DNA from: a phage | Length of the DNA stretch: 64,000 bases | Sequence record: PZ445436.1 | Reading direction: 5' to 3' (one strand) | In this document: piece by piece, positions 7,294 to 58,959 of the stretch | Numbering within the stretch: position 1 is the stretch's first letter | How the letters are laid out: each line of letters opens with the position of its first letter | Made by a program: the position numbers and the translations under genes | Notes under the pieces: model-generated | The model's input: only the letters and a program-made list of their open reading frames with translations | Database searches by the model: none | Told to the model about the DNA's origin: nothing

Positions 7294-8228
7294 TTAAATT
7301 GTTCAGTAACGTCTTCAACTACTTCGTATTGGCAGGTACGCATTTTAGCATCGTTGTAATCAATCGGAATTGATACTACATCACGCGGATGTACTTTAAC
7401 TTTTACGACTCGGCTGGTTGAACTGCCAAAGTGACGAATATAAGATTTAGAACACACATGCAGACCACGAGAACAAGTTTGTGTATCATCGTCATTCACA
7501 CGAGTACGCGGCATTTTAACTACTTTACCAGGACTGTTATCAAAGGTGTTTGAGTGACAGTCAAAGTAGTTGTCACGAACTACTTTCCAAGCATAGAAGT
7601 AACCATCTTCTGTAATTTCAATATCGTTTGCTACCAAGAAATCAAAGAGTCGAGATACCGCTTTTTGGCTTGGGTTTTCCAACAGATTTTCCAAGAACGG
7701 AAAATAAAATTCAAAGTTTTCGCCTTTTTCCATCGAGTCAAGAATACGATCAACCAAACCAGACCGCAATTCAATATTTTGATAGAACAAGCTTCCACCT
7801 TCAATTCGAACATCGCCGGAAATATATTTTTCAACAGCACGACGAACATTAATTTTTTGTGCCGCTTCTTCCAGCTTATCTGCTACAAGCAGATTAAGAA
7901 TTTCCTGGAAGTTTGAATGAGTATTAGGAGTTGCGTTATAAGTTACACCGTCAACAGTAATTGAAATGAATTTTTTAGATGCATTCCAAATAATGTCAGA
8001 TTTAGCAACTGGAGCAATAACTGCATCGCTATTAACTTTAATTGTAATATCACCGCTAATAGTAACTTTAGAGCGTTTAGCTTCTTCAGCATTTTTCAAA
8101 ACACGACGAATTGTGTCAACCGATACACCTTGCCAATCAGCCAATTCCTGTTGGGTGTAATTACCACTTGAATACAGCTTAACAATTTCAGCTTGTTCGT
8201 TTTTGGTCAGGCATTTAATATTGTACAT
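7290..8228 (-). CDS. rIIB: rIIB protein
   Basis: 312 aa as in T4 rIIB; directly downstream of rIIA. Confidence 0.88.
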   Translation of the reverse strand: MYNIKCLTKNEQAEIVKLYSSGNYTQQELADWQGVSVDTIRRVLKNAEEAKRSKVTISGDITIKVNSDAVIAPVAKSDIIWNASKKFISITVDGVTYNATPNTHSNFQEILNLLVADKLEEAAQKINVRRAVEKYISGDVRIEGGSLFYQNIELRSGLVDRILDSMEKGENFEFYFPFLENLLENPSQKAVSRLFDFLVANDIEITEDGYFYAWKVVRDNYFDCHSNTFDNSPGKVVKMPRTRVNDDDTQTCSRGLHVCSKSYIRHFGSSTSRVVKVKVHPRDVVSIPIDYNDAKMRTCQYEVVEDVTEQFK

Positions 8229-8239
8229 AATTTTCCTTA

Positions 8240-10417
8240 TTAGGCCGCAAGGGCCTTCATAGTTTTAGCGATTTGGGAAACTTCATCATCACTTAAAGAG
8301 TTGCGATAACCGATGAAGTCGGAAACAATACGGAATTTCTTGGTAAACTCAGCAACCATTTTATCACTGTTTTTTGAAGCATTATTTGATAGTACATCAA
8401 AAAGATTAGTTACTGTCCAGATGTCATGACCGATGGTATCTTTTCCACCATTAAAATATACGCCGCGCAATGAACTAACTATATTAGCGAGTCGTGTATA
8501 TTCTTCAGAAACTTCATCTGTACTGAAGTACTTCATCATAAAATCTAGTTCAGGATACTTAATAATTTTATCAATATATCGTTGAGCTGAACTTGAATAA
8601 CCTACATACTTATCATAATCTACATCATCAAAAGCATCTACATATAAATCACGCAAAGCTTCAAAAATACATTGGCACTGACCGAGTTCTTTTACCTTTT
8701 TCTGTAAAAGCGGACGAATAACATAAAATTCATTAATGCCAATAAGATTAGCCATACGAATCAAAATATTCATAGATGGATGACAAAGCGATGTAGTACC
8801 ATCCATAGAGAAAATATCAGAACGATGCATATACGCTACATAACCAGTAATTTCATCTGCTTCTGACGTGAGTGTAAATAGTTCCTCTTTTTCCCATCGC
8901 CCATCTTTAATTTCAAATTTAAATGCTGTAGCAGCTTTAGGACGAGGAGCTTTACTTTTAACTACCTTTGGAATATAGCTTTTAACTAAAGCTTCAATTT
9001 CTGACAAATAATGAATGTTAACTTCATCACTTTCAAACATTGCCATAATATCAGGTAGTAAATCAATCTGCGATTCTACTTCCGGATTAATAAACAGAAG
9101 ACGCTCATTGTGATGAATATTTAAGGTGTTATTAAATTCACTATCATCTAATGCACGTGCTAATCCACGGACAATATTAACACGATTTTTAATATTATCA
9201 ATAACAATATTAATTTTTGTCGTATTAATACCAAACAGACGATAACTTGATGCAACGGCTGAAGTTTCATGACTTTGCTTAATACGCTTCAGTCGAGGGT
9301 CAAGATTTACTTCATACACCACGCCTGCATTACATAACTTACTGTCAGGTTCAAACATGCTCTGCATTTTCTTATATGACAGATTTTTAGTCGTGAATTT
9401 GACTGAATTACTAATCATATAATCTCGAGCAGAATACCCCATCTTCATCAATTCACGATATGTATGACGAGGAGATGTAGATTCTTTAAATCGTTTTACA
9501 TCTTCATTAAATGCTTTCTCACTGAGTTCTTTAACTCGTTCAATAATATTTTTACGAGTACGATCATCTAGTGAAAGAGCCTCACGAGATGGAGCAATAT
9601 CAAGTGAACCCATTGGAAACTTAATGTAATTCACTTCATTGCGGATGCTTAGCCAGTTACGGTCTCTAATAACACCATCGATAGGATAAACAATACCGCC
9701 ATAGATAGCATATAATCCACCACGATCTGGCCAGTATCTTTCTGGATTTACGCCATAATAATCATCAAAATCCGGAAAATAATCAATTTCGCGGTCAAGA
9801 CCATTAATGATAGCCAAATCTTTGAACGGTCGCATGATATAAGAAACTTCATAAGCAAAGTTTCTAAAGTCTTTTTCTTCAACTGGAACTACGATTTCAA
9901 TACCAGTTTTATCATCTGGACCCATTTCTTTTACGAATGTAGGTTTAATCTGTGGGCCATCACCATCCATGTAAGCTACATAACCACGAATTTCACCTTT
10001 ATGATACGAAGTAATACTAAACGTATCAGTATAACTAAACGGAGATTTAGAACCTAAACCAAATCCGCCAATGAAATCGTTAGATTCAGCCTTAGATGAA
10101 CTGAAGTATGAATTATACAGTCCAGGAGAATTATCATCACCCTGAATATCAAAATCACTCATACCCGGACCAAAATCTCGGCAAACAAATCGCGGGTCTA
10201 ATCGTCCTGGAACTTGAATGATAAATTTTTCAGGATTTCCATTGAGAGCATGGGCATCAATCATGTTAGTAATCAATTCACGAACTACTGCGCGAATCTT
10301 GTTTGTATACAAATCAGATGACAGAATTTTAAATACTTTAGGAGACGCTGTGATGCTAAATGCTTTTGATTTAGAACCATTACCAAGAATTGTTTCTTTT
10401 TCAGTGGTGATAATCAT
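8240..10417 (-). CDS. rIIA: rIIA protein
   Basis: 725 aa as in T4 rIIA; GHKL-like ATPase region. Confidence 0.88.
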
Positions 10418-53369: not shown

Positions 53370-53690
53370 TTATAGCGTAATCCATTCTCGTACTGTCTGA
53401 GTTACTACACGTTCATGGGGCTCGACTAGTTCAACAGTCGGAACTGCATAATACCAGTCAGAATGATAAGAACCTGACCGAGATTCATTTACAGCCACAT
53501 GTACATTATGTTTTGGACTAAAGTAAACACACTGACGATATTGACATTTACCATCTTGCACCCAGTCTTCTATTTCGACAGGTTTAAGATAATCGGAAAA
53601 ATCGAAATCATAGTTTTCCGAAAATGCATCATGGTCTTCAATGATTTCGCTCAGAACTGCATCAACATCTAATTTATTTTCAATAGTCAT
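53370..53690 (-). CDS. Hypothetical acidic protein (106 aa)
   Basis: ORF track. Confidence 0.45.
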   Translation of the reverse strand: MTIENKLDVDAVLSEIIEDHDAFSENYDFDFSDYLKPVEIEDWVQDGKCQYRQCVYFSPKHNVHVAVNESRSGSYHSDWYYAVPTVELVEPHERVVTQTVREWITL

Positions 53691-54350: not shown

Positions 54351-54593
54351 TTATTCCTTAATTCCTAGTACTTGTTTAAAAGTCTCGTCGTAATCAAGAC
54401 TTTGGCCCGTTTGTTCTTTATGTTTGTATATAATATCACTTACTTCTGATAGCATATTTTTATATGAACGAGTTAAAGCAGATTTAAGCACGCTGTATCT
54501 ATCAGGAAATTTACCATGTTCATTATAATAAGCTATTGCTAATTCACGGACTGCCTTTTCAGCAGCCTCCATATATTCTTTACGCTTGGTCAT
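54351..54593 (-). CDS. Hypothetical protein (80 aa)
   Basis: ORF track. Confidence 0.45.
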
Positions 54594-54595
54594 TT

Positions 54596-54985
54596 TTAAT
54601 CCAAAATATTATTAGGCATTGGTTGAACACTCACAAGTTCTTTAAAGAACTCAGTAGAGTCAGGCAATTTAACCATTTCCGGAGCATGCTTACTGAATTT
54701 ATGTTTACATTGACGGCATTTATATTCAAGCTCTGGTTTACGCCAGTTAATCAATTGAACTTGTTCAGTACCGCATTCAGGGCAATTAGGAACGTTTTTA
54801 GAAGCTCTTTCACGTCGTTCAACCATAGCCATAATAGCATCCCATGCTGGAGGTTTAAAATCTAAATCGTCGCAGCCGTGAATCTTTCCACGCATTTCCA
54901 TATCATCTTCCTCACCAGCCATAATAATTTTAATTAAACTGGAATTACTTGAAGCTGCAATGTCTTCTAATAAACGCTTTTTCAT
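54596..54985 (-). CDS. Hypothetical protein (129 aa) with a C4 zinc-ribbon-like motif
   Basis: CPECGTE...CRQCKHKF. Confidence 0.45.
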
Positions 54986-55911
54986 TTCAATACCTCAATA
55001 GCATTACGTAAACCATTTGCTTTTGCATTAAGAGCTTTTAACAATTTGGTGTGTTCTGCAATTTGGGCTTCAACTTCAGTCAAACGGACATTGAGATATT
55101 CACGTTCTTCACTCAGATTATCAACCTTTTCTACTTTAGGCTCTTTTACAACTGTCTTATATGTATTAGGGTTCTTCAGTTTAATTAGAATGCGTGAACT
55201 GTATAACATTGAACCATTATCTTCGGTTTCGTCATACATTTCCACTACGTCCATAATTTTTAACATCATGCGGAGTTTATAAGACAACGAACGAATAGTT
55301 TTGTTGTGCTTATTAATTTCTTTAGCTGTCATGGTGCCAAGATTACGTGAGTAATAATAAGGAACCTGGATATTAATTAATACTGGTGAACCACCTGGCT
55401 TGTGTGTTACTTCATCAGCAATAACCCAGTCCTTAACATGAACTGTATTTGTACGGTCATCGCCCGCGGTAAATAGTTTGCGAGCATGCTTAAAAAGCAT
55501 ATTCACTTGGTCATTGAATTGACAAGCAAATTTATCAGCAAATTTAGTTTCAGGAATGGTAGAAAACCAATCAGCCAAATGAGTCTTTTTAACATCATTA
55601 ACAATAGTAAATTCAACCAAATCGGTTATAGATGTCTCAGATTTAATGAAGCTCGGCTTCATAAAGTTTTTAATGTTCTCATGAGCTACAGTAGAAGATA
55701 ACATACGAGAACGTTTAAACCATTCAAGCAAATTGCCTAACGAATGAGAATAAGCGTTTTGAGTATCTTTACAGATATGATTTTCCTGACCAACATATTG
55801 AAGGAAATCACGAAGAATATTATTGATTACTGCTCTGTGCCCGATCTGATAATTACGGTGTTTAGTAATAAGACTGTCAAAATAATCAATATAATGTTTA
55901 CGAGTTTTCAT
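54982..55911 (-). CDS. Hypothetical protein (309 aa) with C-terminal coiled coil
   Basis: ORF track; C-terminal heptad-like K/E/L-rich segment. Confidence 0.5.
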   Translation of the reverse strand: MKTRKHYIDYFDSLITKHRNYQIGHRAVINNILRDFLQYVGQENHICKDTQNAYSHSLGNLLEWFKRSRMLSSTVAHENIKNFMKPSFIKSETSITDLVEFTIVNDVKKTHLADWFSTIPETKFADKFACQFNDQVNMLFKHARKLFTAGDDRTNTVHVKDWVIADEVTHKPGGSPVLINIQVPYYYSRNLGTMTAKEINKHNKTIRSLSYKLRMMLKIMDVVEMYDETEDNGSMLYSSRILIKLKNPNTYKTVVKEPKVEKVDNLSEEREYLNVRLTEVEAQIAEHTKLLKALNAKANGLRNAIEVLK

Positions 55912-55963
55912 ATTCTTCTCACTTGGTTAATGGTTTATACTCCGAGCCATCCTTGGCTTTAAA

Positions 55964-56965
55964 TTACTTAATTAACTGTAAAGCTTGTTCAAGACGATCA
56001 AGACGATTAACGGATTCTTCCCAAATCTTTTTAGCCTGCTCATATTCTTTCTGCGCTTTATTAGAAATTTCTAGAACTTCTTTATAAGCTTTTTCTAATG
56101 CAATAACTTCTGGACGAATTTCTACCGGTTCAGGTGAATCATCAAGACATTCCATTAGTTCCTCAAGGGTAGTTTCTTCTTTAGGAGTATTCACAATTTC
56201 ATCACATTTTTGTTGGTAAATTTCTTTACTAGTAGGTGAATAAGTACATTTCACTTCACGAAGACTAACTACAATTTTATATCCTTCCCAACCGCATATA
56301 TTCTTAAAAGGATATGTATGAATATTTTCTACTGTTTCCATACAGCCCAAAACCGCCTCTAATTGATAAGTTATAGTGCTAGCAATTGAGAAAAATTTAT
56401 TAATATTCTTTTGGTTAGCGTTTGGTGTAAAAAATCCATAATTCACAAAAATAGCTACTTTATTTTCATCAAGCTCATATTCTTTTACGATAATCATATC
56501 AGAAGCCAAAGGATGAATTTGACGATAATCGCCATAACATAATTTAGAAGCTGATTTTAGAATTTGTCCTTTGAAAAGTCTGAAATTACTAATCCAACGA
56601 CGAGTAAAAATATTCTCAGGGTCTTCTTTATTATTAAGATGATAAGAATTAACATCACCGAACCAATTATATCCTACTACATCTTTAGTTCGTTTAATTT
56701 CTTTCCCAAAATTACCAAGAATATCCCGATTAACCAAATATGAAAGAAGACGAGATCCTTTAAAGGTTTTCTTAATGGCATCTTTATCTGTACGACTAGA
56801 AATTTCACGAACTTCATGAATAAATTTGCCGGAAGAAACAATACTTGCATCAATATTATTGAGCCATTGATTGATAATAGAAAGAACACTATTTTGGCCA
56901 AACAGCGGTATAACTTTATCATCAATAACGCTATTGAATGATTTGATATATTCGTTACGAGTCAT
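55964..56965 (-). CDS. Hypothetical protein (333 aa; start refined to MTRNEY...) with C-terminal coiled coil
   Basis: ATG 56963-56965 after SD GAGGAGATTAAT; track extension is leader read-through. Confidence 0.5.
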   Translation of the reverse strand: MTRNEYIKSFNSVIDDKVIPLFGQNSVLSIINQWLNNIDASIVSSGKFIHEVREISSRTDKDAIKKTFKGSRLLSYLVNRDILGNFGKEIKRTKDVVGYNWFGDVNSYHLNNKEDPENIFTRRWISNFRLFKGQILKSASKLCYGDYRQIHPLASDMIIVKEYELDENKVAIFVNYGFFTPNANQKNINKFFSIASTITYQLEAVLGCMETVENIHTYPFKNICGWEGYKIVVSLREVKCTYSPTSKEIYQQKCDEIVNTPKEETTLEELMECLDDSPEPVEIRPEVIALEKAYKEVLEISNKAQKEYEQAKKIWEESVNRLDRLEQALQLIK

Positions 56966-56991
56966 ATTAATCTCCTCAGTAGAAAGTAAGA

Positions 56992-57025
56992 ACATTATAC
57001 CACATCCTTGTGGCGAAGTAAACTA
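56992..57025 (-). promoter_or_regulatory. Early promoter
   Basis: GTTTAC (57018-57023), 18 bp, TATAAT (56994-56999). Confidence 0.55.
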
Positions 57026-58042
57026 GTTCAGTGCATTTAGTGCGTTGTTCAGTTTAGAACGTTGCTTCGTGAGATTTTTGACTTTTTCTTGAGCTTTTTC
57101 TAGCATCTTTTCAGCTTCTAGCACTTCATTGGTCGCTTTAACGAGTTCATCATCTACTGCCTTGATAGACTTCTCAATCGCATCCGCGTGCCATTTTTCA
57201 ACAGGTTTAAGACTCGGATTTTCAATAGGAAGAAAATTCACTTTATTGAATTTCCATGCATCTTTATTGCCTGAACTATACATCCAAAATTTAGGATCGT
57301 TTGATGAGTAATTAGATAAATTTAAGTTATCTTGCACTTCTTGCTTTTTCTCTTGCGGGACTTCATCCTTTCTCAAAAAATCGTATTTAAATGAAACGAT
57401 CATATCAAGTTCATATGTTGTTGTATGTTCCCAATTTCGCTCAAAACGAGGTAAAATCTTAGAATGAACAGCGGCAACAACATCCATATACTTAAATGCT
57501 TCTGTCAACTGCGATTTAAGGCATTCGCAAATTGAAAGAGAATTTTTTGTATTAGGTTTAAAGCTAATTCGTGCAGTTCTATTATTTTCTTTTAATGGTC
57601 TTACTTCCATCTGAAGAGTATAACCATCAAATTTCAGGTTCTTTAAGTTAATGTCAGAACCTTTTAATCGACTAGCCGTCGACAAAATTTGATTTAATTG
57701 TTTACGGAATAGAGCAATAAATCTCCATTCAATACGATAATGATTTGGATTGAAAAATCCAGATGATAAATCGACCTTACTCTGACCAACACCTTGAACA
57801 AATAGAGGATTTTTATAATCAATAGTTTTACAGAAATCGGTGAGCTGCTCACGAGCAGTCATTTGTGTAATATACCCTGCTTCGTTAAAATGACGTAACC
57901 ATTCACTGCTATTCATATACTTAAAGTGAATGGAACTATTAACTCTATCAGGGTCTAAATTATTTTGACACAAAAATGTCATAACATCACGAGTATAGCT
58001 GGCATTACGAACCATATCTTCAATTTGAGAACGAGTTTTCAT
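57023..58042 (-). CDS. Hypothetical protein (339 aa) with C-terminal coiled coil
   Basis: ORF track. Confidence 0.5.
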   Translation of the reverse strand: MKTRSQIEDMVRNASYTRDVMTFLCQNNLDPDRVNSSIHFKYMNSSEWLRHFNEAGYITQMTAREQLTDFCKTIDYKNPLFVQGVGQSKVDLSSGFFNPNHYRIEWRFIALFRKQLNQILSTASRLKGSDINLKNLKFDGYTLQMEVRPLKENNRTARISFKPNTKNSLSICECLKSQLTEAFKYMDVVAAVHSKILPRFERNWEHTTTYELDMIVSFKYDFLRKDEVPQEKKQEVQDNLNLSNYSSNDPKFWMYSSGNKDAWKFNKVNFLPIENPSLKPVEKWHADAIEKSIKAVDDELVKATNEVLEAEKMLEKAQEKVKNLTKQRSKLNNALNALN

Positions 58043-58050
58043 GGTGTTCC

Positions 58051-58959
58051 TTAAGATTTAAGTAAATCAACAATTTTAATTAACTTTTCACGCTCAGATT
58101 TAGCTTTACTACTCAATCCAGATAGTCTGAAAATTTCATCATCATATTGTTGAATAGAAATATTCAGCTCTTCAATCTGCTTATTAAAATAATCAATTTG
58201 CTCAGAATGTTTTTCGTTACTACGAACTGGCGCAGGTTTTGTAGGCAATTTAGTTGAACTGGATTCATCCGGGCGATAAATTAAAATACAACTTGAACCA
58301 ATCGGACATTTTGCCCCAGATGAATATTCTAATGTTCCAGCTTCTTTTAAAACTTCAAAAGCTAAACAGAGATGATGCCCCATATTAACATAATCTGTAG
58401 AGCGAGCTCTGACGTAATAATCATCTCCACGAGTGCTAAATTTAAAGCATTTAAGGTCTTCTGTATTATTAGTTTTAAAAATCATTTGTTTATCTAGACC
58501 TTTAGCTAATCGAGCGCCTAATGCTAATAATCGTCGTTGATTTTCCCACAAATCTGCGATCATTTGGTCAAATGATAATTTCGGCATTAGTCGACCGTAA
58601 AGGTCATATCCTTTATTATAATTACGAAGGATTTCACTCGCGTTAATACGAGACAATGCTCCAATTTTATTAAGGGCTTTCATAATGCGATTAGATAAAC
58701 CCATTCCAGACCCGTTTGTTCGCTGCAAATGTTTTTCTAATCCAAATCCAATATCAACTTTAAACTTATCTAAAATTTCTGCATGAACATCTCTGTCAAT
58801 AACATTCAAATCCAAAGTTGGGTTAAATCTATGAAAAAATTTATCTGGCTCTCCACGACGAAGTACAGTCCATTCATTCATTTTTTTATTAACTAAAGAT
58901 TTAATTACTGTATTGACATTATTAATTACTACTGACATATTTTCCTCACTCAATTTCAA
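58051..58959 (-). CDS. Hypothetical protein (302 aa) with C-terminal coiled coil
   Basis: ORF track. Confidence 0.5.
   Translation of the reverse strand: MKLSEENMSVVINNVNTVIKSLVNKKMNEWTVLRRGEPDKFFHRFNPTLDLNVIDRDVHAEILDKFKVDIGFGLEKHLQRTNGSGMGLSNRIMKALNKIGALSRINASEILRNYNKGYDLYGRLMPKLSFDQMIADLWENQRRLLALGARLAKGLDKQMIFKTNNTEDLKCFKFSTRGDDYYVRARSTDYVNMGHHLCLAFEVLKEAGTLEYSSGAKCPIGSSCILIYRPDESSSTKLPTKPAPVRSNEKHSEQIDYFNKQIEELNISIQQYDDEIFRLSGLSSKAKSEREKLIKIVDLLKS

Follow-up and report, generated by a model that had tools for sequence, protein, structure and literature searches.

What are the four adjacent genes nrdC.3, nrdC.4, nrdC.5 and nrdC.6 of the T4-like phages, and are they related to one another? 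Even in T4, which has been studied more thoroughly than any other phage, a phenotype is reported for just one of them, nrdC.5. The question arises from a stretch of 64,000 nucleotides of phage DNA (sequence record PZ445436.1; hereafter, the window), in which an initial annotation, made from the sequence alone, noted four consecutive open reading frames (ORFs) between positions 54982 and 58959 and proposed that they form a family diversified by duplication. The evidence presented below supports the view that all four are remote paralogues that arose from one gene by ancient tandem duplication, nrdC.6 being the least secure member. No prior description of a link between all four genes, or of their conserved architecture, was found in the literature, nor any published description of the mechanism of NrdC.5 or of a function of nrdC.3, nrdC.4 or nrdC.6.

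Sequence comparison identifies the window as the genome of a Tequatrovirus (T4-like phage) and the four ORFs, all on the minus strand, as the orthologues of the T4 genes nrdC.3 to nrdC.6 (Table 1). Matching phage records for the region number 656, almost all of them from T4-like phages of E. coli, Shigella or Yersinia, the closest being phage AdolfPortmann (98.6% DNA identity across the full 4.1 kb). In the records that use T4 nomenclature, the array is flanked by nrdC.2 and nrdC.7 and lies upstream of the thioredoxin gene nrdC. The ORFs are indeed present at the positions and with the lengths originally given (309, 333, 339 and 302 amino acids), except that the last of these, read from a TTG codon, is more probably 295 amino acids long. 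NrdC.3 and NrdC.5 begin with MKTR, as had been noticed, and NrdC.4 begins with MTR.

The identity to the T4T proteins is 60% for NrdC.3, 93% for NrdC.4, 91.5% for NrdC.5 (across 340 columns) and 97.6% for NrdC.6; among the neighbours, the products of 49.2, nrdC, nrdC.1 and nrdC.7–nrdC.10 are 91–99.7% identical to those of T4T and that of nrdC.2 is 78% identical. NrdC.5 matches the Pfam family DUF7235 (PF23882) over its full length with 415.7 bits (expectation value, E, of 1.7e-124; gathering cut-off, 30 bits) and so is a member of that family, and its gene is flanked by nrdC.6 and nrdC.4 both here and in T4T. NrdC.3 and NrdC.4 belong to the PHROG 1435/PF26897 family: the phrog_1435 matches are full-length and significant, and PF26897 is carried by the homologues of nrdC.4 and by full-length homologues of nrdC.3 in the precomputed annotation of these homologues. 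NrdC.6 falls in phrog_2257, a very narrow family with 11 representatives among 1.84 billion. NrdC.3, at 60% compared with 92–98% for the flanking paralogues, has database homologues that span 95% to 57% identity; its gene therefore occurs as strongly diverged alleles inside one genus, which suggests either replacement of alleles or faster evolution. In many GenBank records, nrdC.1–nrdC.11 carry the label ‘thioredoxin’, which appears to have spread from the locus name nrdC.N; for the four genes, this label is rejected because none of the proteins matches a thioredoxin- or glutaredoxin-type family in Pfam or NCBIfam.

The N-terminal domains are as divergent as the initial annotation held: in pairwise BLASTP comparisons, significant similarity is confined to the pair NrdC.3 and NrdC.4 (E of 7e-8), and PHROGs and Pfam likewise place these two in one family and NrdC.5 and NrdC.6 in two others. 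Deeper relationships can be gleaned from profile–profile comparison with hhalign, for which an alignment of each family was built from database homologues and enriched with orthologues found on 14 viral contigs. Homology between NrdC.3 and NrdC.4 is clear from these sequence data (98%). The NrdC.5 profile matches that of NrdC.4 at 85% (P of 6e-6) and the merged profile of NrdC.3 and NrdC.4 at 94.6% (P of 7e-8), the latter alignment extending across the core of the N-terminal domain. The NrdC.6 profile reaches 55% against the same merged profile (P of 1e-4) and 85.7% against the merged profile of the three other families (P of 5.5e-6). The significant alignments cover the core of the N-terminal domain rather than the C-terminal helix, and reversed-sequence controls score 12–20 compared with 34–104 for the real pairs. 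Additionally, phrog_26858 weakly matches both NrdC.4 and NrdC.5. Similarity between the N-terminal domains is therefore detectable, and duplication is supported by the profile alignments together with structure comparisons, most weakly for nrdC.6, for which the link consists of the merged profiles and one structural match. The youngest of the paralogues is nrdC.3, which is closest to nrdC.4.

The structural comparison employed an AlphaFold2 (AF2) model of NrdC.4 that rests on an alignment of 58 sequences drawn from the four families and is confident (mean predicted local distance difference test, pLDDT, 83.9; predicted template modelling score 0.68). In this model, a helical bundle (residues 3–84) is followed by three strands (88–110) and helices (119–142); the alpha/beta core spans residues 88–259 and includes a hairpin-helix-hairpin (158–235) and a further helix (246–259), after which a disordered linker (261–283) leads into a long helix (285–332). 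When the model was searched with Foldseek against BFVD, a library of predicted structures of viral proteins, 17 matches were found at E<=1e-3. Those with a named source (four of the 17 lack an organism name) are uncharacterised proteins of T4-like phages, roughly 150–375 amino acids long, and include NrdC.6 of phage JS10 (E of 3.7e-5, probability 1.0, template modelling score, TM, 0.43–0.50) and two proteins with adjacent accessions from Acinetobacter phage Acj61. The search against the PDB yielded no match at E<=1e-3, so that no solved structure was matched confidently, and the profiles of NrdC.5 and of the four families combined produced only chance-level matches to PDB sequences. No functional or enzymatic domain was found for the four proteins with Pfam, NCBIfam or PADLOC, and a role as binding proteins fits this lack of enzymatic domains; the weak domain matches that do appear are to coiled-coil families (DUF4164, V-SNARE_C, CENP-F zipper, BrxC tail). 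Residues 30–86 of NrdC.3 show a sub-threshold match to the N-terminal SAM-like core-binding domain of tyrosine recombinases (E of 0.13 in Pfam and 0.003–0.03 in NCBIfam).

Each of the four proteins ends in a helix of 45–60 residues with an unbroken pattern of 6–8 heptads, which agrees with the K/E/L-rich, heptad-like segment noticed originally. In the alignment of each family, hydrophobic residues occupy 72–85% of the a and d positions compared with 22–27% of the others, the dominant period is 3.45–3.50 residues, and the helices of all four finish in the same register. All four contain at least four unbroken heptads in a predicted helix, which is the coiled-coil criterion used here, and AF2 draws long helices in NrdC.4 and NrdC.5 (pLDDT 71–90 over residues 280–338 in the latter). 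The four share the C-terminal motif L-x-x-A-[IL]-x-x-L-[KN], in which L325 and A328 are at least 90% conserved in the 58 sequences of the four families; in NrdC.6, many residues of the helix are invariant across homologues that are 34–56% identical to the window protein. The clustering of such helices exceeds chance because, among the 71 ORFs of at least 90 amino acids in the window, the four genes and nrdC.8 take ranks 1–5 in C-terminal heptad contrast. In a cruder shuffle test on single sequences, the best-scoring heptad window of each of the four proteins lies at the C-terminus, and the observed value is reached by 1–6 of 300 shuffles for NrdC.3, NrdC.5 and NrdC.6 and by 35 of 300 for NrdC.4.

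The product of nrdC.8 (175 amino acids, rank 4 of 71) also ends in a long heptad helix, rich in K, E and R and highly conserved across genera, and this gene is located directly upstream of nrdC.6 in Dhakavirus and Gaprivervirus. As a demonstrated fifth member of the family, nrdC.8 is rejected (hhalign P of 0.055–0.58).

The same genomic slot also holds tandem members outside Tequatrovirus, so both the family and its tandem arrangement at this site are old within the Straboviridae, with a copy number that has changed over time. In Acj61 (Twarogvirinae), two members of 330 and 304 amino acids, both ending in a K/E/L-rich helix, are located between nrdC and nrdC.10; in Dhakavirus (QL01-like phages) and Gaprivervirus (VR25), there are three, in the order nrdC.6-nrdC.5-nrdC.4, without nrdC.3; and in Tequatrovirus, there are four. 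Within Tequatrovirus, all four genes are subject to purifying selection, with the ratio of non-synonymous to synonymous substitution rates (dN/dS) in their domains between 0.01 and 0.27. In each group of orthologues, no segment is more conserved than the C-terminal helix, which is also the most constrained part of nrdC.4 (dN/dS of 0.04) and nrdC.6 (0.01). Individual arrays show further rearrangements. A metagenomic protein of 299 amino acids (P0056) is a natural fusion of NrdC.5 residues 145–271 with NrdC.3 residues 129–309, with nrdC.4 deleted; in the otherwise intact phage L006, nrdC.4 is split into two ORFs (7971–9003); and in T2 and G8, the BFVD entries contain nrdC.4 only as fragments of 155–158 amino acids.

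What could such a family be for? Transposon data from T4 show each of the four genes to be non-essential, and nrdC.5, termed an early gene in the T4 paper, restores the plating of a T4 deletion mutant on cells with the sirtuin defence Dsr1 when expressed (Srikant, Guegler and Laub, eLife 2022, PMC9391042). Two other inhibitors of host immunity are encoded within 2 kb of the array: gp49.2, which counters OLD (PMC13096335), and NrdC.1, which counters Septu (bioRxiv 10.1101/2025.11.20.689424), so that the DNA between 49.2 and nrdC.6, both included, has the appearance of a counter-defence island. Given the anti-Dsr1 effect of nrdC.5, the dispensability of the genes and the adjacent inhibitors 49.2 and nrdC.1, the explanation that we somewhat favour is that the four genes are ancient duplicates that diversified into a family of defence inhibitors. 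The four proteins have one architecture in common, in which a small bundle of helices at the N-terminus is followed by an alpha/beta core, a disordered linker and, at the C-terminus, an amphipathic heptad helix of 45–60 residues. Each paralogue would act stoichiometrically, as a protein inhibitor directed at a different immune protein of the host or at a variant of one, with NrdC.5 neutralising Dsr1, a SIR2-type NADase. Target specificity would reside in the divergent N-terminal domain, and the strongly conserved C-terminal helix would serve a purpose common to all four. The simplest such purpose would be homo-oligomerisation as a coiled coil, by which the inhibitors would gain avidity for defence proteins that are themselves oligomeric. 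Of these points, the identity of the genes, their paralogy and architecture, the purifying selection and the dispensability are shown, and the anti-Dsr1 activity of the T4 orthologue is taken from the literature; the anti-defence roles of nrdC.3, nrdC.4 and nrdC.6, the split of tasks between domain and helix, and the oligomerisation are inferred.

Several observations weigh against this explanation. Experimentally, it draws on one complementation experiment with nrdC.5, from one paper (PMC9391042), and in one comparison from the HIDEN-SEQ screens, nrdC.3–nrdC.6 were without phenotype. The AF2 model of NrdC.5, built from a shallow alignment, is poor (pLDDT 51.5) and was left out of the fold searches, although the order of its secondary structure elements is like that of the NrdC.4 model. 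Against single-family profiles, NrdC.6 is not significant (hhalign P of 0.01–0.09), although these alignments still place the same two motifs in register. The cores of the helices depart from the canonical leucine zipper, with Ala or Ser at several d positions and Tyr or Trp at several a positions, which points to possible antiparallel packing or binding of a partner instead of parallel zipping. Finally, the N-terminal domains are basic (isoelectric point of 8.8–9.4, net charge of +5 to +9), which would also fit binding of nucleic acids.

These features bear on three alternatives. Basic domains are what would be expected if the four proteins served to take over the host early in infection and had no part in immunity, such as regulators that bind nucleic acids and dimerise via the coiled coil, the effect on Dsr1 being indirect; the published effect of NrdC.5 is a plating phenotype, and the SAM-like match in NrdC.3, a DNA-binding domain, combines with the charge into a faint hint, at the level of sequence, of nucleic-acid binding. 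That match, however, is far under the curated cut-offs and, in Pfam, present in just four of the 58 family members, the genes are dispensable in the laboratory host, and the neighbouring genes encode direct inhibitors of defence, so we regard host takeover as rather unlikely. Joint action of the four proteins, as subunits of one hetero-oligomeric complex assembled via their related C-terminal helices, seems to us improbable. It would account for the retention of the order nrdC.6-nrdC.5-nrdC.4 in three genera, for helices that end in the same register with a common terminal motif, and for the strong constraint on these helices, the most constrained part of each protein, but a fixed complex is hard to reconcile with copy numbers from two to four, with the split or fragmented nrdC.4 of L006, T2 and G8, and with a fusion of nrdC.5 to nrdC.3 that deletes nrdC.4. 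Moreover, nrdC.5 alone, on a plasmid, restored infection in the face of Dsr1; the extent of the evo 3 deletion is not stated in PMC9391042, so that other paralogues may remain in that phage.

Still less probable, in our assessment, is that only nrdC.3 and nrdC.4 are paralogous and that nrdC.5 and nrdC.6 are unrelated genes, with amphipathic helices that are convergent or coincidental. This possibility is raised by the single BLASTP link, by the three separate families in Pfam and PHROGs, and by nrdC.8, in which a similar helix comes without detectable homology. Convergence of helices would not, however, produce significant profile alignments in the core of the N-terminal domain, nor place two motifs in register across all four families, and the structural match of the NrdC.4 model to NrdC.6 and the weak matches of phrog_26858 to both NrdC.4 and NrdC.5 also argue for common descent.

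Among the known systems, the closest is T4 NrdC.5 itself, of which the 339-residue protein of the window is the orthologue and the other three ORFs are remote paralogues; the anti-Dsr1 activity is that of the T4 allele against the Dsr1 of ECOR17, and about 9% of residues are different in the allele of the window. The nearest functional analogue for the way in which NrdC.5 may act is DSAD1 of SPbeta-type phages, which binds and blocks DSR2, an NAD-depleting protein with a SIR2 domain; DSAD1 is not among the top structural matches, and neither NrdC.5 nor the four-family profiles have a meaningful match to a PDB chain. The neighbouring inhibitors differ from the four proteins: gp49.2 (106 amino acids) and NrdC.1 (80 amino acids) share the neighbourhood of the array, and NrdC.1 is likewise dispensable in T4 and gp49.2 is reported from the Straboviridae alone, but both are small single-domain proteins without a coiled-coil tail and without similarity to NrdC.3–NrdC.6. 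Phage tail terminator proteins of the lambda gpU type are also counted among the closest known systems. Dsr1 contains a TPR-type sensor that is reported to recognise major capsid proteins (PMC12803255), and a more speculative proposal, which we consider very doubtful, is a modular decoy system with a constant coiled-coil handle and a fast-diverging head. Here, the alpha/beta core would mimic the fold of a tail terminator or tail tube protein, and each paralogue would occupy the sensor domain of a different defence protein (Dsr1, possibly Avs-type proteins with a TPR sensor) before the late structural proteins appear.

If one ancestral gene indeed gave rise to all four, any search for new defence inhibitors has specific candidates in nrdC.3, nrdC.4 and nrdC.6, comparable with 49.2 and nrdC.1, and the variation between two, three and four copies across the Straboviridae offers a natural series for the expansion of counter-defence by duplication. 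The progress is incremental: hundreds of genomes already have these genes on record, and the kinship of nrdC.3 and nrdC.4 is already recorded in Pfam and PHROGs. The link that joins all four genes appears to be a modest new point.

Table 1. Features of the nrdC.3–nrdC.6 array and its surroundings in the window (a/d, fraction of hydrophobic residues at heptad positions a and d versus the other positions).
Feature	Position	Strand	Evidence
nrdC.3 orthologue, 309 aa	54982..55911	-	phrog_1435, E 3.3e-114; annotated nrdC.3 in phage KMB39
nrdC.4 orthologue, 333 aa	55964..56965	-	phrog_1435, E 1.2e-167
nrdC.5 orthologue, 339 aa	57023..58042	-	Pfam DUF7235 (PF23882)
nrdC.6 orthologue, 295 aa from ATG	58051..58938	-	phrog_2257, E 3e-152
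nrdC.3 heptad helix, residues 265-309	54985..55119	-	a/d 0.85 vs 0.27, period 3.45
nrdC.4 heptad helix, residues 285-333	55967..56113	-	AF2 helix 285-332; a/d 0.84 vs 0.27
nrdC.5 heptad helix, residues 280-339	57026..57205	-	AF2 helix 280-338; a/d 0.85 vs 0.22, period 3.50
nrdC.6 heptad helix, residues 241-295	58054..58218	-	a/d 0.72 vs 0.24, period 3.50
Promoter-like site: TTTACT, 17 nt spacer, TATAAT, with TG	56994..57022	-	consensus scan, 10/12 matches, pattern only
gp49.2 orthologue	53370-53690	-	96% identical to T4
NrdC.1 orthologue	54351-54593	-	99% identical to T4
nrdC.2, 129 aa	54596-54985	-	
nrdC.8, 175 aa	59409-59936	-	
ORF at the T4T gene 49.3 position, 71 aa	53874-54089	-	Pfam DUF7205, E 4e-11
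ORF downstream of nrdD, 279 aa	49595-50434	-	

The starts of two of the genes call for comment. The nrdC.4 ORF extends upstream to an ATG at 56995, which falls inside the -10 box of the promoter-like site between nrdC.5 and nrdC.4, and a GAGGAG ribosome-binding site precedes the ATG at 56965; for these reasons, the original reading of nrdC.4, with 333 amino acids from 56965, is correct. For nrdC.6, the 302-residue reading used a TTG at 58959, but the ATG at 58938 is, on sequence features, more probably the start, because GAGG is present upstream of it, the annotated nrdC.6 genes of relatives are 888–891 nt long, and from this start there is no overlap with nrdC.7.

Outside the array, no orthologue of 49.3 is detectable in the window; the T4T position of this gene is taken by the small DUF7205 ORF. 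The nrdC.2 product is longer than that of T4T (129 compared with 104 amino acids; the 78% identity extends over 100 residues) and shows a weak zinc-ribbon match (E of 7e-6, under the cut-off). The 279-residue ORF directly downstream of nrdD, which overlaps the nrdD stop codon, has weak NUMOD1/I-HmuI-like matches (E of 2e-4 to 5e-3, under the cut-offs) and is probably, to judge from these matches, a free-standing homing endonuclease that varies between phages; in L004 and L006, ORFs of 273 amino acids are located between gene 49 and nrdD.

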